The position numbers and the translations under genes are program-made. The notes beneath the pieces are model-generated. The model had not been told where the DNA came from. It did not search any database and was given only the letters and a program-made list of their open reading frames with translations. DNA of 35,661 nt, taken from the IMG/VR virus record IMGVR_UViG_2554235304_000012; one strand, written 5' to 3'. This stretch comes from a virus. Taxonomy: Duplodnaviria > Heunggongvirae > Uroviricota > Caudoviricetes. Below, one piece after another: positions 593 through 31,893 of this stretch. How positions within the stretch are numbered: position 1 is the first letter of the stretch; each line of letters starts with the position of its first letter.

Positions 593-741
593 AGCGACCT
601 CCCTTAACGTAGTGCTGTCGCTAGTTTAGGCTGAACTTGCTCAGACTCCAACTGATAGTTCGTTTTGTTTACTGATGCCGTAGAAAGGTCTCTTAGCAAG
701 AATAACCCCAGTTTAACACTGGGGTTGCTTGCAACAGAGCG

Positions 742-1407
742 TCAATTTTTAAGAGCACTGATACAGAAAAATTGCATGACATTTTTCTTTATTGATTTAA
801 ATAAGCTAAACATTGTGACAGGTTCAAAGCTAGTTAACTCGATGAATTCCTCTCTCATTTGAGAAAGTAACAGCTGACGTACTGATTCAATTTCTGCTGT
901 TTGTTTTCTCAAATATCTTGAGAAAACAAGTAGTTCATCAGCTGTTTTGTTTTGGCCATTTATAAACGTAACAGGTTGCCCTGGCTTAGATATGAGAAAA
1001 AATTGGTTAATTTTATCAAGTAATGGTGGAATTATTTTTTTCCATTCAGCCCATTCTTTTTCACGATGAAACTCCAGACTGTGCTGACATGTTCTTAGTT
1101 GCTGTATATCAATCGCCCAGACCTCACTCTCATCGAGGCAATCTTTCCATTTGCTAATTACATTAATGTCAAATTTTTTGTTCGGTAGATAATTATCTTT
1201 GGCGTGCGCTTCCAGTATAGAGGCAAGAGTACCTGTATATTGCATCAAATTGGTAGATGCTCGGTTTACTAGCTCAGATATTCGATCTAGTTGAGTTGTT
1301 CTAATCTCAAGTGCTTTCTTTTTACGTTCATTTCGTAAAGCAAAATATGCAGCAAGGCAGACTGCAGCAACTGTGGCTGCTGGTGCGATAAAAATTTGCA
1401 TATTCAT
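742..1407 (-). CDS. Hypothetical membrane-anchored protein (about 221 aa, N-terminal TM helix), AT-rich moron
   Basis: Track ORF 742..1431. Start moved to ATG at 1407 (MNMQIFIAPAATVAAVCLAAYFAL...), which has an AGGA Shine-Dalgarno upstream. AT-rich by eye relative to flanking phage genes. AT-rich upstream region 1432-1601 and a hairpin plus T-run downstream (about 690-725). Confidence 0.6.
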   Translation of the reverse strand: MNMQIFIAPAATVAAVCLAAYFALRNERKKKALEIRTTQLDRISELVNRASTNLMQYTGTLASILEAHAKDNYLPNKKFDINVISKWKDCLDESEVWAIDIQQLRTCQHSLEFHREKEWAEWKKIIPPLLDKINQFFLISKPGQPVTFINGQNKTADELLVFSRYLRKQTAEIESVRQLLLSQMREEFIELTSFEPVTMFSLFKSIKKNVMQFFCISALKN

Positions 1408-1601
1408 AACATGGATCCTTTGACATGGCATTTATGGGGGCTATTTCAGCAGTAATCATTTGTGTGTAAATTTGTTTGCTACAAATTAACATATTCTAAT
1501 GTAAGGCTCTTCTGATTTTGACACCGGGTAGGCTGTCAGATTGGTTATGATTCTTGCTGTAAGCGCGTTAGCAAATGTCAGGGCTAATGCATCTAAGTTG
1601 T

Positions 1602-8453: not shown

Positions 8454-8488
8454 AAACCGCTAATGGTCAGATTAGCGGTTTTTATTTT
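8454..8488 (+). terminator. Rho-independent terminator after the FI-U operon (also abuts the 3' end of the invertase gene)
   Basis: Perfect 11-bp stem AAACCGCTAAT / ATTAGCGGTTT with loop GGTCAG, followed by TTTTATTTT. Confidence 0.55.
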
Positions 8489-9071
8489 CCTGAGTCTGCC
8501 TGGTTGTTTCTTCAGCCTGTATATCGCCTACAGGGTGATAACGATAAATCGTCGATATGCCGATGTCGTAAATGATCGCCAGTTGTTTCCTGTCATGACC
8601 GTTTTTAATCAGCCTCGCTATTTGCTCGTGTTGTTCTTTTGTCAACTTCGGGCGACGTCCGCCAATGCGTCCTTGTGCGCGTGCTGCTGCCAGCCCGGCC
8701 AGTGTACGCTCTACAATTAATTCACGTTCCATTTCGGCTAAAGCCCCCATGACGTGAAAAAAGAAACGCCCCATGGGTGTTGATGTGTCAATGCTGTCCG
8801 TCAGACTACGGAAATTAACACCTTTTTCCCGCAATTCCTCAATAAGCGTGATCAGGTGTTTCATACTTCTGCCCAGTCTGTCCAGCTTCCAGACAACCAG
8901 CGTATCTCCTTCTGATAGCGTTCTGAGCAGTTTTTTCAATCCCGGTCTGGCTGATTTCGTTCCGCTGATTTTATCTTCAAAAATCAGTTCACATCCTGCG
9001 CAGTTCAGTGCATTGCGTTGTAAATCCGTGTTCTGGTCATTTGTTGACACACGAATATAGCCAATTTGCAT
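8472..9071 (-). CDS. Cin/Gin/Hin-family serine DNA invertase
   Basis: MQIGYIRVSTNDQNTDLQRNAL..GCELIFEDKISG...RPGLKKLLR.L..GDTLVVWKLDRLGRSMKHL..LIEELRE.G.NFRSLTDSIDTSTPMGRFFFHVMGALAEMERELIVERT.AGL..ARAQGRIGGRRPKLT is near-identical in pattern to P1 Cin / Mu Gin as remembered. Start set to ATG 9071 (AGAGGA Shine-Dalgarno at correct spacing). Confidence 0.9.
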   Translation of the reverse strand: MQIGYIRVSTNDQNTDLQRNALNCAGCELIFEDKISGTKSARPGLKKLLRTLSEGDTLVVWKLDRLGRSMKHLITLIEELREKGVNFRSLTDSIDTSTPMGRFFFHVMGALAEMERELIVERTLAGLAAARAQGRIGGRRPKLTKEQHEQIARLIKNGHDRKQLAIIYDIGISTIYRYHPVGDIQAEETTRQTQENKNR

Positions 9072-9125
9072 AAAAAACATCCTCTTTGTTTCGTGAAAAA
9101 TACAGAGTTGGTATAGGTAGGGATA

Positions 9126-9151
9126 AAAACGAAAACGTTGGTTTGGGGGAA
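9126..9151. repeat. hix/cix-like recombination site 1 (centre TT at 9138-9139)
   Basis: CGAAAACG-TT-GGTTTGGGGGAA. Homology to the other two copies begins exactly here. Confidence 0.5.
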
Positions 9152-9571
9152 GGCTCTGCACTGCCCGTTGGTGTGCCCGTTCCGTGGTCCTCAGCAACAC
9201 CACCAACGGGCTGGCTGAAATGTAACGGTGCAGCATTTTCTTCTGAAATGTATCCCAGACTGGCAAGGGCTTATCCCACCAATAAATTACCGGATTTACG
9301 CGGTGAATTTATCCGTGGCTGGGATGATGGGCGCGGGATTGATGCGGGACGTACCCTGCTTTCAGGGCAGGATGGTACAAGTTTTTCTCATTACGGAGGT
9401 AATTTCGACATTGGGTCTGGTCATTCAATCAATAACTATGACCAAATTGTTTCTAACCAACCAGGCTTTTCCCGTTTTTCATTTGCAGGGCCTTCACGAG
9501 GTGATGGGGTTAATTATGTAACCATTCGTCCTCGTAATATTACGTTTAATTACATCGTAAGGGCAGCATGA
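9139..9571 (+). CDS. Promoterless alternative tail-fibre C-terminal cassette 1 (silent orientation)
   Basis: The translation (within track ORF 9086..9571) shares GLGEGSALPVGVPVPW..ATPPTGWLKCNGAAFSSE.YP.LA.AYPTNKLPDLRGEFIRGWDDGRGIDA and the C-terminal PRNI.FNYIVRAA with the H C-terminus, but has a different middle region. Confidence 0.6.
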
Positions 9572-24056: not shown

Positions 24057-26261
24057 TTACGTGTCGAGAGAAATTTGTGTGCGCAGTTGAATAGGATTCA
24101 GAATTGTATATCGCTGGCGAATAACATTATATAAATCAAAGTCTTTTACCCTTACGCTTATTACCATCGCATATTGCATATCAGGGGCTGAAACTCCCTT
24201 AACATGGCGCGAAGAATCTCGGGCATGATACCGTATATCAAAAACTGGATCGCTTAATAATGTATCAGCACTGAACTTTTTGCTTCTGTGCAAACAAGTT
24301 TCCCACTTATGACCTTCACTCCTACACTCCCTTTCAGTCTTATACTGGCTTTTTTGACCAAAGAAATCATCTGTATCGGTATCGTCAAGGCCGAATCTTG
24401 GGCGGAAAGTTACCTGCATACCGGCCCTTGTATAGTTTACTGAATGTTCAGGATCTACTGGGGTTTGAATGCATAAAGTAGCGGTAAGCTCAAATGCTTC
24501 GTCAAAGGGAACATCAGGGAATGGGATCGGTGCCCTTAAATATTTATTTTTTGCTAATGAACCATAGTAAATTACTGTAGCAGTATCATTTGGACAATCG
24601 ATTAAAACGTTAGGATCCTCACTAAACCGTCCCCAACCGATATGTTCACGCGAATATTTTCTTGATGTTTCAGCATGATGAACAAGCAACGCTTTCAATG
24701 CAATGGTGTTCAATGGAGTTCCTGATAGAGCCGCAACTCCAGCGGCCGTTCTCAATGCTAATGGAGAGGCATAACTGGTTCCTTGAACTCCAACTATAGA
24801 ACCAAGCAGAGGGTTGTAAGTGTAAAAAGGCTCGTCGTCGCTTCCACCAAAAATAACACCATCAGGTTTAACGAATCCGGGGCTTCTGCCTGGCCCAATA
24901 CAGCTATATGGTGCCCGCCCCCATTTTTCACCGCTACGATCAGCAGCACCAATCGCTAGCGCGTTTACCATATCGGAAGGAGGTTGTATTCTCGCTGCAT
25001 CACCGTCCTCATTGCCATCATTCCCAACAGCAACAGTAAGTAATATCCCATGCTTAGCACAGATTTGGTCTAAAACAGCAGTCCATACATGAACCTCATC
25101 ATCACCAATTGGAAGATGAGGACCAATACTTAGATTAGCGAACTTATAGTCACCACTATCAAGAACGGACTGTATTTTCTTAAGGACATCAAATAAATCC
25201 CAATTGCCATTGTCACCTGATGTCGGTGAAAGAACTCTATAATGATCTACATTCATAAACGGTCTTTTAAAAGAAGGTGCATTTTCCTCGACACGTCCGA
25301 ATAAGAAAGTGGATGTCACTTCATTACCGTGCTGCAATAATAATCCGCTTGTTTCTTTGGTGTCTGGATACACGTATTCCGTAACCCAATTACTCAAGTC
25401 AGCTGTCCCCAAGCCACCATCAAAAATGGCAATACGTTCGGATTCAAGAACAGCTTTAGAATTAGGGAGCTCCGGTGTAACTATATTAGATAACTTTCTG
25501 ACAATGTTCGGCTGAGTACACCTGAGAGACGGCATCGGCCGCACAACGCGGATTAATGAAAAATCGAGTGTTTTTTTCATATCTTCAGGTCGCGCGTGTG
25601 CAACGATGAAAGTCAGCCCACCAACTTGGATTCTACTTTTGTAATCAACAGAGACATCATATTGTGCCGCATAGCTAATATAGGCTTTAACGATATCATC
25701 GTCTTCAACCCCAGCATGAAGAACCACTTCAAATTTTATCAAATCACTTTTCGCATGCTCAAAATTGCGTGCTCTCTCTTTTCCTTCAAAAAAGCTAACA
25801 CTTTCAATTTCGATCAAATCCTTTTGTACGCCCTTCGGAGCTGTAGGGGAATTTAAAATTTCCTTAAATCTTATAACGGCATCATCATCACCGCTAACAA
25901 ACAGTTGCGCCGTTACTAAGTCCTTATTCTGATCGCACTGACGTGCCGCTTTCCGTGGGCGAATGATTACCTGACGGCTGCCGACATCCCGTAAACCTGT
26001 CGCTCTAAGCAATCCTTCCGGAAAGTAGCTTTTACCCAAAAACGCTGGGTGTAAAGTTAAATTGAATACACTCTCCCCCCTTGGCTTAGCCGCATCATCC
26101 AAACTGCGAAAGCGTGAGAGTAAAGTATCAATCTCTGGGTTTAAATGCTCCCTTACTTCTTCAAGAGTATAGGGATAGCGCTTACCATCCCTTCCTTTAG
26201 GCAAAGGTTCCTTTTTTGTCAGAACATGACCGTTACCTAAAAGTAAGTTCCTTTCCATCAT
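24057..26261 (-). CDS. Subtilisin-like serine peptidase (S8 family), 734 aa; IetS-like
   Basis: Asp box IAIFDGGLG, oxyanion-hole region VAVGNDGNEDG and Ser box GTSYASPLALRTAAG in S8 order. Start overlaps the upstream ATPase stop by 4 nt. AT-rich by eye. Confidence 0.85.
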   Translation of the reverse strand: MMERNLLLGNGHVLTKKEPLPKGRDGKRYPYTLEEVREHLNPEIDTLLSRFRSLDDAAKPRGESVFNLTLHPAFLGKSYFPEGLLRATGLRDVGSRQVIIRPRKAARQCDQNKDLVTAQLFVSGDDDAVIRFKEILNSPTAPKGVQKDLIEIESVSFFEGKERARNFEHAKSDLIKFEVVLHAGVEDDDIVKAYISYAAQYDVSVDYKSRIQVGGLTFIVAHARPEDMKKTLDFSLIRVVRPMPSLRCTQPNIVRKLSNIVTPELPNSKAVLESERIAIFDGGLGTADLSNWVTEYVYPDTKETSGLLLQHGNEVTSTFLFGRVEENAPSFKRPFMNVDHYRVLSPTSGDNGNWDLFDVLKKIQSVLDSGDYKFANLSIGPHLPIGDDEVHVWTAVLDQICAKHGILLTVAVGNDGNEDGDAARIQPPSDMVNALAIGAADRSGEKWGRAPYSCIGPGRSPGFVKPDGVIFGGSDDEPFYTYNPLLGSIVGVQGTSYASPLALRTAAGVAALSGTPLNTIALKALLVHHAETSRKYSREHIGWGRFSEDPNVLIDCPNDTATVIYYGSLAKNKYLRAPIPFPDVPFDEAFELTATLCIQTPVDPEHSVNYTRAGMQVTFRPRFGLDDTDTDDFFGQKSQYKTERECRSEGHKWETCLHRSKKFSADTLLSDPVFDIRYHARDSSRHVKGVSAPDMQYAMVISVRVKDFDLYNVIRQRYTILNPIQLRTQISLDT

Positions 26262-27340
26262 TTAATCCCCCACTTTTGTAATTTATTCGCGATTGTTGGA
26301 TGTGAAACACCAACTAATTCAGCTATCTTCCTATTTGAAAAACCGTCAAAATGATATTTAATTATATTGAGATCATTATCGCTAAACTCATCCAATGAAA
26401 CCCTCTCCGTAATTACGGCTTCTATTAATGAGCTTTCAAATGGAATATTTCTAAGTACCTCATTCTTTTTGGAGAAATTCAAAATACGGTTAATGATGGC
26501 AAAGGACATGCCATCTAATAATGGTGCAAGTTTTTTAGATAGTTCAGGTTCAATATTATGATTGACTAAATATCTATCTATCAGTTCTACTGATGGCATA
26601 TTAAATTTAAGGATGTGCTCAAATCGACGCCAAACAGCCGGATCTAAGATATCAGGGTGATTAGTCGCAGCAACAAGAAGCGAGGTCGCTGGCCACTCAT
26701 CTATGGTCTGTAGGAGTACAGTAACTAAACGTTTTAATTCTCCAACGTCCCTGTCATCATCACGTCTTTTTGCAACAGCATCAAATTCATCAAGCAAAAG
26801 GACACATGGTTTCTCTTTGGCATAATCCATAACGGATTTAATATTATTACCTGTTTTTCCCAAAAGAGAACTCATTACAGATGAGAGATCCAATGTTAAA
26901 AGAGGTAAATTTAACTTTGCAGCAAGCCAATGTGCGGACATTGTTTTGCCTACGCCTGGCGGGCCAGAAAGTAAAACCGTCTTCACAGGTTCAAGACCAG
27001 CTTTGAACAAAGAAACCGCATTCTCTCTTTCGTTAACAATTGACTCCAGCTTCTTTGAGATATCCGTATTCCATACAGGTTCTTCAACAATTGCGTTGAC
27101 AGATGTTTCCTGCAAAAGGTTTCGTCTGGAGTCTCCATCCACAGGCATAGGAGCCTTACTAGATGCCCCACGTAATACTGTTCCCTCAGCAACTAACGAA
27201 GCCAGCTTAGAAGCTAAAGCCTCATCATTTTTACGGATGTTGTTAATCATCTTTCTGCATAGGAGTGTAAATGCATTTGCGTTGCCTTTGATGCCTTGCT
27301 CGATGAGTTTGAAAAGTTCATCCTCCCTCACGTTTACCAT
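26258..27340 (-). CDS. AAA+ ATPase with C-terminal helix-turn-helix, 360 aa; IetA-like
   Basis: Walker A GPPGVGKT, Walker B VLLLDEFD, sensor/SRH region LLVAATNHPDILDPAVWRRF, and a C-terminal HTH NRKIAELVGVSHPTIANKLQKWGI. Confidence 0.85.
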   Translation of the reverse strand: MVNVREDELFKLIEQGIKGNANAFTLLCRKMINNIRKNDEALASKLASLVAEGTVLRGASSKAPMPVDGDSRRNLLQETSVNAIVEEPVWNTDISKKLESIVNERENAVSLFKAGLEPVKTVLLSGPPGVGKTMSAHWLAAKLNLPLLTLDLSSVMSSLLGKTGNNIKSVMDYAKEKPCVLLLDEFDAVAKRRDDDRDVGELKRLVTVLLQTIDEWPATSLLVAATNHPDILDPAVWRRFEHILKFNMPSVELIDRYLVNHNIEPELSKKLAPLLDGMSFAIINRILNFSKKNEVLRNIPFESSLIEAVITERVSLDEFSDNDLNIIKYHFDGFSNRKIAELVGVSHPTIANKLQKWGIK

Positions 27341-27718: not shown

Positions 27719-28030
27719 TTATTCAGGAAATAACGCCCGGATATTTCCGGCCATCTGACTGGTTATCTGTGCGGTTGATACTGGCTGTGACGCGGGGCGT
27801 TCTGTCTTGGTTTGTGTCACTGATAACACCTCATCATCAGCCCATGCAGCCAGTCGGTAAGCCTCTGCCGGATTCATTTTCAGAAGTGCCAGCCCGGCCA
27901 GAAAAGCCACGCGTTGGCCGCTTTTGCGGGCTTCTGGTGTAAGGCTGTCCAGCCAGGCGCATGCTTCTCCTTCGTTCTTGACGGCGGTGGGCTTCAGATA
28001 GAAACTTATCCGTCTGGTTGGAGTCGTCAT
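27719..28030 (-). CDS. parR: ParR-like centromere-binding adaptor (putative)
   Basis: 103 aa from ATG 28030 with AAGGAG Shine-Dalgarno, immediately downstream of parM as in R1 parMR. N-terminal RISFYL.P ... LDSLTPEARKSGQRVAFLAGLAL weakly resembles R1 ParR (RTIAFKL.P...LDSIPQGERSRLNRAALTAGLAL). Confidence 0.6.
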   Translation of the reverse strand: MTTPTRRISFYLKPTAVKNEGEACAWLDSLTPEARKSGQRVAFLAGLALLKMNPAEAYRLAAWADDEVLSVTQTKTERPASQPVSTAQITSQMAGNIRALFPE

Positions 28031-28034
28031 TGGT

Positions 28035-28994
28035 TTACTCCTTGTCCATTGCGTACAGCCCATTAACCAGAGCAAACTGTGGCACCCCGTCCGCGATGAA
28101 AGTCGCATTAACTCCGCAGGCTTCGCGGATAGCGGGTGCCACAATCTCCGCCCCTCCACCGACAACCATCACCCGCCCGTAACCCGAAAAAACCGCCAGC
28201 GCGCGGATCACGCGTTGTTTCAGTGTTTCCTCCTTTTCACGAATAACTGCCATCAGGCTGGCGTAATGCGCGTCATTGTGGATGTGCTGGCGCAGCCAGG
28301 CTTCATCGTGGCGATGTTCGATAATGGTATTGGCGATGTGGTGACTGGTGCGCATACCGTTGGTGGCCATCACCGACAGCACGGCATCGGCCATCAGAGA
28401 AACGCCTACGTGTGGATCGCAAAACACCTGGCTGATACCTGCCAGTTGCCCCTGAACCTTTGCCACATCCAGCGTGGTTCCGCCCAAATCCACAATCAGC
28501 AGGGATTCAAACGGACTCATGTCAGCCAGTGCTTTAAAGCCAGCCGGAATGGATTCAGGCATAACCCGCACGTTACGGATAGTGAATGCCTCGCCGTTTT
28601 GGTACTCCACCGGGCGCATAACGTTCGCTTTTTTGCGGTTGATGTTGGCCATGTCCGGCTGTGCGTTTGTGTCGAAATACTCGCTCAGTGGCAGGGTGAC
28701 AACCACATCCACCTCCTGTGGCGTGATGCCTGATTTGACCAGCGCATGATGAATGGCAATGACATTCACATCGCTGTACTGGTATTGCGTGTCGGTCGTC
28801 TGGACAAAGCGATCGCTGACCGGATCAAAACCATAGCGCACGCCATCAAGCATGTAGTTCGCGGGCTGCGTGCCACCGAACGGCGCAGACCATTCCGACT
28901 TGAAGCTGTTCGGGCTGATGGCGTTGCGGTGTTCGCCGTTCTCAGTCCATGCCAGCTTGATGTTGGTGGAGCCGTCGTCGATACAAATTTTCAT
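28035..28994 (-). CDS. parM: ParM/StbA actin-like segregation ATPase
   Basis: MKICIDDGSTNIKLAW......ISPNSFK.EW...FG...NY.L.G..Y.FDP.S......T....YSDVNV.A.HHAL..SG....EVD.V.T.PL.E..D.N.QP...NI.RKKAN..R......G..FTI..V.VMPESIPAG...L......SLLI.DLGGTTLD aligns closely with R1 ParM as remembered. Confidence 0.9.
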   Translation of the reverse strand: MKICIDDGSTNIKLAWTENGEHRNAISPNSFKSEWSAPFGGTQPANYMLDGVRYGFDPVSDRFVQTTDTQYQYSDVNVIAIHHALVKSGITPQEVDVVVTLPLSEYFDTNAQPDMANINRKKANVMRPVEYQNGEAFTIRNVRVMPESIPAGFKALADMSPFESLLIVDLGGTTLDVAKVQGQLAGISQVFCDPHVGVSLMADAVLSVMATNGMRTSHHIANTIIEHRHDEAWLRQHIHNDAHYASLMAVIREKEETLKQRVIRALAVFSGYGRVMVVGGGAEIVAPAIREACGVNATFIADGVPQFALVNGLYAMDKE

Positions 28995-29031: not shown

Positions 29032-29134
29032 GGATTTTTAAATCCCGTTTTCGCCTGTTTTGTGCGCGCTTCATATATCGCGGCGCGTTTTTTGCTCATT
29101 TACGGGATTTGTGAATCCCGTTTTTGTCTGTTTT
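29032..29134. repeat. parC-like repeats upstream of parM (two ~30-bp direct repeats, each with an internal inverted repeat)
   Basis: GGATTTTTAAATCCCGTTTTCGCCTGTTTT (29032-29061) and GGGATTTGTGAATCCCGTTTTTGTCTGTTTT (29104-29134). The second copy lies inside the last codons of gene A. Confidence 0.45.
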
Positions 29135-31893
29135 TTGTTTCCACTGGTCAGGCCACCCCGCAGCAGGTCTGCTTTGCGGCGGGCGCGTTCAGTTGTTTCA
29201 CTGATTCTCTGTTCGTGCTCTGCGTCGCGGATGGCGCGCAGCATGTCAGAAAGTACGGTAACGGGTGTTTTCATGGTGTTCTGGTCTTGCTGAAGTGTGG
29301 ATGCCAGGCGTGCGGCGGCTTCAGGGTCTGATGCCCCTAGTTGTTCCAGATAGCTGGCGACCGGGTTATGGCGGATCTCCGTGCTGCTTACGCCGTGGTT
29401 ACGGCTCAGGCGTTGCCAGAGCTGCGTGATTCGGCTGTCCGGGCGGGTATCCGGTTTACGTACAATTTCATATCCCTGCGGTGCAATGATGCTGCCGTCA
29501 ACGTACAGGCTGCCGCCCCGTAACAGGTGCTGCATCTGCTGTTCACCGATATGCAGGCCGAGAGATTCAGCAGACTCCCGCCATTCTTTAGCGAGTAATT
29601 CGTGGTTATCAGGCAAAGGCCGCTGCTGTTTGCGGCTCTGTGTCCAGCTCTGCATTTCATCACTGCTGTTTTTTGCCTGTTTGTCACGAAGCGAACGCAT
29701 CAGCGCCCGGCGTTCGTGCCGTTTCAGTGAGCGCACCCATTCGTTCACTTCAACGCCGTCAGGGAGCTGCGGCCACGGTGCTGGCCGTTCTTCCGGCTGT
29801 TCTGTCCCGTTGTTGTCCGTTTCCTGTACACGGGGACAGTTATTGCCACGAGTCCAAGGGGCGGCAGGGCCGCCCTGAAGGTCAAAACCATTTTCGTGGG
29901 CGCTGCCTTCCTGTTCCGGTTTACGTCTTACCAGCTTCCAGTTATCCGGGTGCGTGCACACACGGGAGGATTCCCCGATGAGTGGTGACCAGATCCCGTA
30001 AATCTGTACACTCTGTTCGCCGTAATCGTTCAGCTCATCGGCGAGGTCGTAGGCGGTGCGAATCAGGTAGTCTTTGCGTGGAACAAGTACACCGCCCTGT
30101 TTCTCTATGTAGGTGGCAAAACATCCGGCATCAGCGGCAGCGAGTACCGCATCCATTGCGTCATCCTTCAGCCGTTGCGGGCCTTCCGGGTTGCGTGCCA
30201 TCTGGCTGGCAAGGCGGCGGAGTTCACGCCACACCTGACGGGAGGGGATGCCAAAGAACTGGAACTGGCGGACCCGGTGAAGGCGTGCCCAACCGATGGC
30301 GCGCTCCACGCTCTCGGCCATTGATTTTCCGGTTTCGTGGTCAACGCGTGGTTTGCCCGTTTTCGGGTCGATGCCATCCACGGCGCGGCTGTCCAGGTTT
30401 TTTCCGATGTAGGTGGCGATGTAGCTGGTTGGCGTGCCTTTGGTGCCGTCGACGTACTCCACCTTAAAGCGCGGAGTAATATCATTGCCCAGCTCGTGGC
30501 GGTCTTCCTGAATGGCAATATCGCGGGTGATGGTCACGATGCTGTCGATTTCTTCCGGATGAGCAAAGACCATCATATGCCAGTGCACGGTGCCGTCATG
30601 GTGAGGCTCCACCGTGCGGATGCCATACCAGCGCAGGCCGTCGCGGTTCAGTTTTTTGCGGACCGCCGCAAAAAACGTGTTAACCAGGTAATCGCTGGAG
30701 TCGCGCATGGTGGCCCCGTTCCATTTGGGGTTCGGATGACCGTTCTCCGTTGTTGCGTGGTATTTTGACGGGCAGGTGACAGTCAGAAACACCGCTCTGT
30801 CGCCACGGGCTTCGGCCAGAAGTTCCAGTCCCTTCATGGTGGCCATCATTTCTGCCTTACGGTGAACCGGGTTACTTACTCCCGCGTAATACACTGTCTC
30901 GAGATCAATCGTGAACCCGTCTTCGTTTTCCAGCATGAAACTTTTCAGGAAATCGCGTGTTTTCTCGCGCTGTGCGCGAAACTCGCTTAACGCGTCCTGG
31001 CTCAGATAGGGCGATGTTTTTCTGGAAACCAGACAGGCGGCGCGGAGTTGTTCTTCTCTCCACTCGCAACGTAACAGCCACAGTTTGCGTTTCCACCATT
31101 CCGCACAGGTCAGGCGAAGGATTGCGCCCGGCAGCAGCTCCGTGTCCGGTTCGTTCCTCCGGTCTTTGTCTGTTGTCAGTGCGTCATAATGTGGAGGCAT
31201 GGCGTGCAGGTGTAACGCCATGCGGGCCAGCATCTGATACGCCTTCAGGGTTACATCCATGGTCAGCTCGCCATCGGTCGCGCCAAAGCCATCGCAGAGT
31301 TTTTCGAAGGTGCTGCTGAACATCGCCGCCGTCATGGTTGCCAGCGTCTTTATCTGGTGTTTGTTGAGCTGCGGCAGGTAAAGCAAATCGTCCAGGCGTT
31401 CGCGTCCGGCAAGGGAGCGATAACCCGGTGTCAGCCAGCGGTGATCGGTGCGCTCCAGACGTTCGAATATTTTGCGCAGGGTCCCACGCGCATAGCGTTC
31501 TGCCTGCCTGGCGTTTTTTCCTTTCTGACGATCGGCTTCCTGTTTTTTGCGCAGGAAGGAGAGGTGGCGAATAAGCGGATCGCGCAGATAGGACGGCAGC
31601 AGGCGCAGCGAGGCCATGGCTTCATCCACCGCGCCGCGTGCCTGTTTTCTGGCGTCTCCTGCCAGTGTGATGGTTTTGTCCTGTTTTTCCTGTGCGTCCA
31701 GGCTTTTATTAATCAGGTTGCCCAGCGGCGTGGCGGAGAACGCCGCATCAGCCATTTCCTGGCGGTGCTCGTTCTCTGCCCGGTAGGCATCCAGCCAGGA
31801 GGAAAGCGCGGATTCAGGAGCGGGGATCCCCGTTCCTTCACGCCCCACTGCGTGGCGCGGTTGTTGCCAGTCCCTGATGTACTCTGCCGTCAT
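29071..31893 (-). CDS. A: Replication initiation protein A (rolling-circle HUH endonuclease family), 940 aa with C-terminal extension
   Basis: Position and orientation as P2 A. A histidine-rich HUH-like motif (PHHDGTVHWHMMVFAHP) consistent with a rolling-circle initiator. Uninterrupted ORF, about 180 aa longer than P2 A (761 aa). Confidence 0.85.
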   Translation of the reverse strand: MTAEYIRDWQQPRHAVGREGTGIPAPESALSSWLDAYRAENEHRQEMADAAFSATPLGNLINKSLDAQEKQDKTITLAGDARKQARGAVDEAMASLRLLPSYLRDPLIRHLSFLRKKQEADRQKGKNARQAERYARGTLRKIFERLERTDHRWLTPGYRSLAGRERLDDLLYLPQLNKHQIKTLATMTAAMFSSTFEKLCDGFGATDGELTMDVTLKAYQMLARMALHLHAMPPHYDALTTDKDRRNEPDTELLPGAILRLTCAEWWKRKLWLLRCEWREEQLRAACLVSRKTSPYLSQDALSEFRAQREKTRDFLKSFMLENEDGFTIDLETVYYAGVSNPVHRKAEMMATMKGLELLAEARGDRAVFLTVTCPSKYHATTENGHPNPKWNGATMRDSSDYLVNTFFAAVRKKLNRDGLRWYGIRTVEPHHDGTVHWHMMVFAHPEEIDSIVTITRDIAIQEDRHELGNDITPRFKVEYVDGTKGTPTSYIATYIGKNLDSRAVDGIDPKTGKPRVDHETGKSMAESVERAIGWARLHRVRQFQFFGIPSRQVWRELRRLASQMARNPEGPQRLKDDAMDAVLAAADAGCFATYIEKQGGVLVPRKDYLIRTAYDLADELNDYGEQSVQIYGIWSPLIGESSRVCTHPDNWKLVRRKPEQEGSAHENGFDLQGGPAAPWTRGNNCPRVQETDNNGTEQPEERPAPWPQLPDGVEVNEWVRSLKRHERRALMRSLRDKQAKNSSDEMQSWTQSRKQQRPLPDNHELLAKEWRESAESLGLHIGEQQMQHLLRGGSLYVDGSIIAPQGYEIVRKPDTRPDSRITQLWQRLSRNHGVSSTEIRHNPVASYLEQLGASDPEAAARLASTLQQDQNTMKTPVTVLSDMLRAIRDAEHEQRISETTERARRKADLLRGGLTSGNKKQTKTGFTNPVNEQKTRRDI

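Follow-up and report, generated by a model that had tools for sequence, protein, structure and literature searches.

What does a lone AT-rich gene do between the tail gene D and the late-gene activator gene ogr of a P2-family prophage? The question arises near one end of a window of 35,661 nucleotides, i.e. the whole stretch of viral DNA that was analysed. A preliminary description, made from the letters of this window alone, had noticed here a gene for a membrane-anchored protein and suspected a role in superinfection exclusion or abortive infection.

A single-gene insert in a P88-like prophage

Bases 600-1700 of the window match the chromosome of Escherichia coli O127:H6 E2348/69 (NC_011601) at 100%, and the locus lies just past pheT and ihfA, at the prophage end. 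Among sequenced phages, Escherichia phage 520873 (Xuanwuvirus, Peduoviridae) comes closest, with 94% identity. On the minus strand, the genes follow each other in the order D (1602-2834), the target gene, ogr (332-592) and a hok/gef gene (1-141). The two flanking genes belong to the phage backbone: D encodes a tail or baseplate hub protein (Pfam Phage_GPD, PHROG 52) and ogr a late-gene activator with a zinc finger (Pfam Ogr_Delta, E = 5e-14). The genes for sheath, tube, E, T and U are located on the plus strand, and D is divergent from them. The backbone had been taken for that of P2, which is correct at the level of the P2 family; the prophage is, however, P88-like (Xuanwuvirus), and with D divergent from the tail operon its gene order is unlike that of P2. 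Counted from its first ATG, the D ORF comprises 410 aa, whereas RefSeq has only 263 aa and an overlapping partial pseudo-ORF (L001 7003-7847).

Several other genes of the same prophage were recorded. The hok/gef ORF encodes a toxin (Pfam HOK_GEF, E = 4e-7) and is accompanied by a sok-like antisense RNA on the minus strand (128-287; Rfam RF01794, 48 bits, under the gathering score of 59). Both are found at the prophage end adjoining ihfA and are conserved in sister prophages. The IetAS pair, a second defence cargo of this prophage, occupies a second cargo site (24057-27340). It consists of the subtilase IetS (24057-26261) and the AAA ATPase IetA (26258-27340), both on the minus strand and recognized by PADLOC with E values of 6.6e-41 and 3.6e-89, respectively. 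Also inside the prophage, a ParM-like gene (28035-28994) and a StbB-like plasmid-stability gene (27719-28165) adjoin the replication gene A (29071-31893), so that this P2-family element contains a partition module of plasmid type. The minus strand also encodes, between tail gene U and tail-collar or tail-fibre genes, a site-specific recombinase of the resolvase family that possesses an HTH_7 domain (8472-9266); it is probably an invertase of the Cin/Gin type, by which tail fibres are switched.

The extent of the insert was determined by alignment with an empty D-ogr allele (L003). The sequence that is missing from empty junctions spans about 627..1589, i.e. ~963 bp, and in the empty allele D and ogr are only 42 bp apart. 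Thus, the locus is what the preliminary description had proposed, a single-gene cargo between D and ogr: one low-GC insert with one gene. The GC content amounts to 37.5% in the insert and 35.7% in the gene, compared with 54.1% in D, 49.8% in ogr and 52.1% in the whole window, which confirms that the composition differs from that of the neighbouring genes. Segments of 963 bp that are as AT-rich as the insert make up 0.3% of the total, and every one of them overlaps the insert.

The ORF covers positions 742-1431 of the minus strand and encodes 229 aa when counted from its first ATG. The true start is the ATG at 1407, so that the coding sequence (742..1407, minus strand) specifies 221 aa, the length that had been estimated before. 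This start is established by a Shine-Dalgarno motif (AAGGA) 8 nt upstream, by the homologues, all of which begin at the corresponding position, by the 221 aa given in RefSeq, and by the allele of strain CB9615, in which a substitution at 1429 removes the upstream ATG. The structure model and the match to a RefSeq protein described below agree with the coding sequence defined in this way.

An upstream region of 194 bp (1408..1601, minus strand) separates the start codon from the stop codon of D. In it, the AAGGA motif occupies 1420-1416, and TAGAAT at 1498-1493 weakly resembles a -10 box. Approximately 190 bp of upstream sequence, including the block GAATATGTTAATTTGT, are conserved with a copy of the gene in a Kluyvera lambdoid prophage. 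The earlier label of a promoter-like region is only partly borne out. Promoter scans detected no convincing sigma-70 consensus upstream of the gene, the best candidate being TAGAAT with a poor -35, but a published clone of the gene (see below) provides defence with its native upstream DNA. The gene presumably has its own promoter within 1408..1601; we infer this activity from the behaviour of the clone and not from the sequence.

Downstream of the gene, 16 nt past the stop codon, a terminator-like hairpin, AACCCCAGT-gttaa-ACTGGGGTT, is located at 704..726 on the minus strand. The hairpin that had been noted at this place is real, with a GC-rich stem of 9 bp and a folding z of -2.5 for the region, whereas the T-run that follows it (UUAUUCUU) is weak. 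The hairpin is not conserved in the Kluyvera copy.

Near-identity with the published defence gene DS-43

The window protein is identical to WP_001057122.1 at 219 of 221 positions, i.e. the two are nearly identical over their full length. In Table S6 of DeWeirdt, Mahoney and Laub (Science 2026; PMC13092281), WP_001057122.1 appears as D668, or DS-43, a DefensePredictor hit with the entry TRUE for defensive and the category 'Structural defense homolog'. The sequence given in Table S8 of the same paper shows the same 219/221 match to the window protein. The two substitutions concern residues 101 and 134, which are I and N in the window protein and R and D in DS-43.

The agreement extends to the surrounding DNA. 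E. coli CB9615 carries exactly WP_001057122.1 at D-ogr, beside the same ogr protein. Over the 1009-bp ogr-D region, CB9615 and the window differ at four positions (1008, 1106, 1276 and 1429), and only the last of these falls within the 194-bp upstream region. The gene studied here and DS-43 therefore share the D-ogr locus, the prophage type and nearly identical flanking non-coding DNA, and the window contains the same transcription unit as the validated clone.

For the published assays, each transcription unit was inserted, together with flanking DNA (at most 200 bp of the native upstream sequence and 100 bp downstream), into pCV1, a vector that has a pSC101 origin and lacks a promoter ahead of the cloning site; the strain tested was MG1655 pCV1-D668 (PMC13092281). 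With this plasmid-borne, 99%-identical allele in K-12, outside the E2348/69 lysogen, the efficiency of plating (EOP) was reduced by 5.0 log10 units for Bas1 and for Bas3, 4.8 for Bas9, 6.3 for Bas19 and 5.1 for SECphi18, and by 0.5 for Bas11, which formed small plaques (Table S7 of PMC13092281). The rest of the 24-phage panel, lambda and T5 among them, is not listed for D668 (PMC13092281). Bas01-13 are Drexlerviridae, a group with the receptors FhuA, BtuB, YncD, TolC or LptD, and Bas19 is a Nonagvirus (PMC8594841). The receptor is confirmed individually only for Bas01, which uses LptD (PMC8594841), and is assigned by group for Bas3, Bas9 and Bas11. Since the groups of the sensitive phages use several outer-membrane receptors, the protein probably blocks phages after adsorption and not by receptor masking.

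The suspected role in defence, by superinfection exclusion or abortive infection, is thus supported by an allele from the same locus that lowers EOP by 4.8 to 6.3 logs. We consider it very likely that E2348/69 possesses here its own copy of DS-43, a defence determinant of a single gene which a P88-like prophage carries as exchangeable cargo in its D-ogr hotspot. Pathogenic E. coli would then owe to this gene some of the phage resistance conferred by a common P2-family prophage. As the defence function has already been published under the name DS-43, there is little new in the phenotype. PMC13092281 presents DS-43 without mechanism, genomic context or family analysis, and no later paper that follows up DS-43 was found in our literature searches. 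What we add to the published work is modest: a description of the hotspot, a definition of the family, its conserved residues and a negative test of the proposed relationship to Csx28.

The D-ogr junction and the DS-43 family

More than 1200 genomes match the D/ogr flanks, and most of the junctions sampled are empty. Alternative cargo at D-ogr includes DUF3800 and PIN_12 genes, a PsyrT-like PRTase accompanied by a partner gene, a RiboL-PSP HEPN protein, a DUF2971 gene that matches the PADLOC candidate PDC-S31, a 384-aa protein without family match and an IS600 element. In E. coli O145:H28 12E115 the site is occupied by GmrSD (L045 1666-3249), a type IV restriction gene and as such an established defence gene. 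The junction is thus mostly empty in relatives and elsewhere occupied by GmrSD, PIN, HEPN, PRTase, DUF2971 or DUF3800, which makes D-ogr in P88-like prophages a defence hotspot whose cargo takes many alternative forms. We did not find D-ogr described as a hotspot in the literature searched.

Phage P2 carries the lysogenic-conversion defence genes old, tin and fun(Z), and defence hotspots of P2 and P4 were reportedly described by Rousset and colleagues in 2022. The D-ogr junction resembles these cases in that variable, low-GC anti-phage cargo stands at a fixed position of a P2-family element. It differs from them in the site itself, D-ogr in the P88-like lineage, and the encoded proteins are unrelated.

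Comparison of the junctions also revealed two end-elements that are common to all cargo alleles at D-ogr and are both missing from the empty allele. The first, which we call RE, is a conserved element of ~95 bp adjoining D (1495..1591; the copy in the window is degenerate). The second, LE, is a semi-conserved element of ~45 bp adjoining ogr (627..672). Further copies of RE were located at 2535-2632 of L004, at 7805-7925 of L014 and at about 3500-3600 of L043, L044 and L045. Outside D-ogr, RE-like copies occur upstream of the DS-43 homologue in the Kluyvera lambdoid prophage (L014) and in two E. coli islands outside P2-like prophages, and altogether 75 of 5426 genomes contain an RE copy. LE is weakly conserved and untraced elsewhere; its consensus was not found in L043-L045 with up to three mismatches allowed. 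RE was rejected as an RNA, as searches against Rfam and for tRNAs returned no match and neither a conserved fold nor covariation was detected. A transposon-like cassette was rejected as well, since the alignment of LE with RE scores no better than shuffles and there are no significant terminal repeats.

To define the family, we combined several searches. A word-indexed search of 5.8 billion proteins yielded seven clusters, and an exhaustive profile search with HMMER recognized 23 family members, mostly of 214-235 aa, among 1.84 billion representatives. The family grew in further profile searches to include proteins of Klebsiella, Salmonella, Citrobacter, Pseudescherichia and Kluyvera as well as plasmid-borne ones of Pantoea, Erwinia and Winslowiella. 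Every family member found belongs to the Enterobacterales. When 5426 complete E. coli genomes were compared, 58 proved to contain the DS-43 gene (50 of them at an identity of at least 99%), and its carriers include EPEC E2348/69 and O55:H7 CB9615. The 99% allele of CB9615 and a 91% variant, found in a sister prophage integrated near serS, are both located at D-ogr.

More distant members of the family invariably occur as stand-alone genes of mobile elements. In ICEs, which have a ParA, DnaB and DUF2857 backbone, they are found beside TIR/SEFIR, DUF4145 or HipA genes. A member on a Citrobacter plasmid adjoins parAB, another shares its locus with genes for DUF4238 and DUF4145 proteins, and an integrase-borne island next to smpB contains a member together with a KAP NTPase. 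Two lambdoid prophages also carry family members, and the Kluyvera homologue is 74% identical.

Degraded copies were observed, too. IS1 interrupts the matched D-ogr region in two strains (H8/H9: AR_0128, AR_0118), and the gene is split in three others (H144-H146). In phage 520873, the sole carrier phage record in the collection searched, the copy is frameshifted to 124-132 aa (L002 979-1377).

Protein architecture and possible modes of action

As had been stated in the preliminary description, the protein has no recognisable family. Searches of Pfam, PHROGs, NCBIfam and PADLOC gave no family match for DS-43, and the same searches over all 18 to 23 family members returned noise only. The AF2 model, based on a 16-sequence alignment and with a pLDDT of 80.9, shows one TM helix and an all-helical soluble domain, in agreement with the single N-terminal TM helix and soluble domain that had been read from the letters. 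In the model, a long helix of residues 3-70 starts as the TM segment and is followed by four or five bundled helices and a C-terminal amphipathic helix; the bundle has a generic 4-helix-bundle fold. The soluble domain had been called Lys/Glu-rich, which is true only to a mild degree (K 9.6%, E 8.6%).

The TM helix comprises approximately residues 5-24 at the N-terminus and is followed by the basic juxtamembrane stretch RNERKKK. A net positive charge just after the TM helix is found in 22 of 23 family members, and the N-terminal tail is neutral. Since the positive charge follows the TM helix, the positive-inside rule predicts an N-out/C-in topology, in which the short N-terminus (~4 to 8 residues) faces the periplasm and the bundle is cytoplasmic.

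The mean pairwise identity is 53% in residues 5-45, which cover the TM and juxtamembrane segments, compared with 26% in the rest of the protein. The residues P9, A20, L24, K30, K31, H114 and W122 are invariant, and these positions provide concrete targets for studies of the mechanism. Along residues 5-60 the conservation has a period of 3.45 residues, a value reached by 18 of 2000 shuffles, and this fits a single conserved helical face. Periodic conservation is present in the other helices as well, as expected of any helical bundle. The TM helix itself is not amphipathic but uniformly hydrophobic; with a muH of 0.03 and few polar residues, it is not an obvious pore lining. Together with the genomic contexts, these data define a very small family that moves between mobile elements and whose conserved core is the membrane helix and not the soluble domain.

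Provided that DS-43 is a defence gene, we tentatively favour an abortive-infection-type sensor-effector acting on the membrane, a reading that we regard as quite possible, if short of probable. The cytoplasmic bundle would sense a phage product or the state of infection, and the conserved TM/juxtamembrane helix with P9, A20, L24, K30 and K31 would oligomerise and then permeabilise or depolarise the inner membrane. Such a protein would act like the Csx28 pore, without a Cas13b partner. The proposal rests on the architecture and the conservation pattern: the effector role is assigned to the membrane segment because it evolves slowly, and the sensor role to the bundle because it evolves faster and is more variable but contains the invariant His114 and Trp122. 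An abortive-infection reading is favoured because family members also occur on plasmids and ICEs and because the blocked phages are unrelated to the carrier prophage.

Classical single-pass inner-membrane exclusion proteins are HK97 gp15 and T4 Imm, and together with P22 SieA they represent small inner-membrane phage-cargo proteins that protect the host. DS-43 is similar to them as a small inner-membrane protein that guards the host from incoming phages as cargo of a phage, and it is possible, if somewhat unlikely, that it works by exclusion. In that case DS-43 would block the translocation of siphovirus genomes at the inner membrane, possible points of interference being the tape-measure or pilot-protein channel and a host factor of the inner membrane, and the cell would survive without suicide. 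This would suit a prophage-encoded, single-pass inner-membrane protein whose membrane segment is its most conserved part, but just ~4 to 8 residues are predicted to be exposed to the periplasm, and a conserved cytoplasmic domain of ~190 aa with an invariant His and Trp would be left without an obvious role. Similarly, the protection is confined to small siphoviruses, a group with several outer-membrane receptors, and the EOP reductions are very large, with plaques unreported for most phages; however, lambda and T5, both included in the panel, are not listed as affected, and the blocked phages have no relationship to the prophage that carries the gene. The copies on plasmids and ICEs also argue against exclusion. 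The large conserved cytoplasmic domain, the carrier-unrelated targets and the plasmid/ICE copies distinguish DS-43 from gp15, Imm and SieA, and no sequence or fold relationship to these proteins was found.

The sensor-effector reading can be extended to the family as a whole. DS-43 would then found a small Enterobacterales family of membrane-tethered helical-bundle immunity proteins unrelated to Csx28, with the TM/juxtamembrane segment as effector, the bundle as sensor and an RE-linked shuttling of defence genes. We think that this more far-reaching combination is unlikely. If it were true, RE would mark an undescribed route by which defence cassettes are exchanged among P2-like prophages, lambdoid prophages and genomic islands.

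Next, we consider whether DS-43 is a true remote homologue of Csx28 (DUF4760), the type VI-B accessory protein, and hence an octameric membrane pore freed from Cas13b. This appears very unlikely to us. The relationship is suggested by PMC13092281, which names Csx28 as the best HHpred defence homologue and assigns DS-43 to its category of structural defence homologues; the hit to Prevotella buccae Csx28 in Table S8 spans 16.7% of the query with a probability of 55.7%. Moreover, the UniRef label of a 99%-identical member, 'DUF4760 domain-containing protein', is the same as for Csx28. The two proteins are also alike in defence role, in size (177 aa for Csx28 and 221 aa for DS-43) and in layout, with a TM helix at the N-terminus and a helical domain in the cytoplasm, as judged for DS-43 from the AF2 model and the charge bias. 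The solved Csx28 structure (PDB 8GI1) contains 8 chains.

For a direct comparison, Csx28 was taken from the Segatella buccae Cas13b locus via the CRISPR repeat and confirmed to be PDB 8GI1, and metagenomic relatives were added. hhalign assigned a probability of 0.5% to the pair DS-43 and Csx28 and aligned only 22 to 27 columns of the TM helix, so that the cytoplasmic helical domain, a divergent HEPN in Csx28, showed no similarity. Likewise, the profile comparison with the Csx28-like DS-13A recovered nothing beyond the TM helix, and a profile search of PDB sequences with DS-43 did not find 8GI1. DUF4760 in the current Pfam gives no hit for the DS-43 family, nor for Csx28 itself. Finally, csx28 of P. 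buccae adjoins cas13b, whereas no cas genes were found beside members of the DS-43 family in the window or in the 12 contexts examined. Thus, of the remote-homology search and structure prediction, the latter yielded an all-helical model, and the link to Csx28 was lost in the former when profiles were compared. As only the TM helix is aligned and the PDB and Pfam searches are empty, homology of DS-43 to Csx28 is not supported, and the resemblance between the two is architectural.

It is most improbable that defence is a side effect of a native role in entry exclusion, addiction or host membrane modulation that benefits mobile elements: the family is confined to mobile elements of Enterobacterales, with members beside partition genes (Citrobacter plasmid) and within ICE backbones, but the gene gives five to six logs of protection from a low-copy plasmid with native expression signals, it is interchangeable at D-ogr with established defence genes such as GmrSD, and an antitoxin-like partner gene is absent beside the family members in every context examined.

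The Kluyvera lambdoid prophage with the DS-43 homologue also encodes a pore-forming colicin-domain protein of 408 aa (L014 6077-7652). A colicin-immunity role of the DS-43 family was rejected, as the other contexts contain no colicin and the Kluyvera colicin has a putative immunity gene of its own. This gene encodes 100 aa on the other strand, just downstream of that for the colicin, and is, by position and size, probably the immunity gene.
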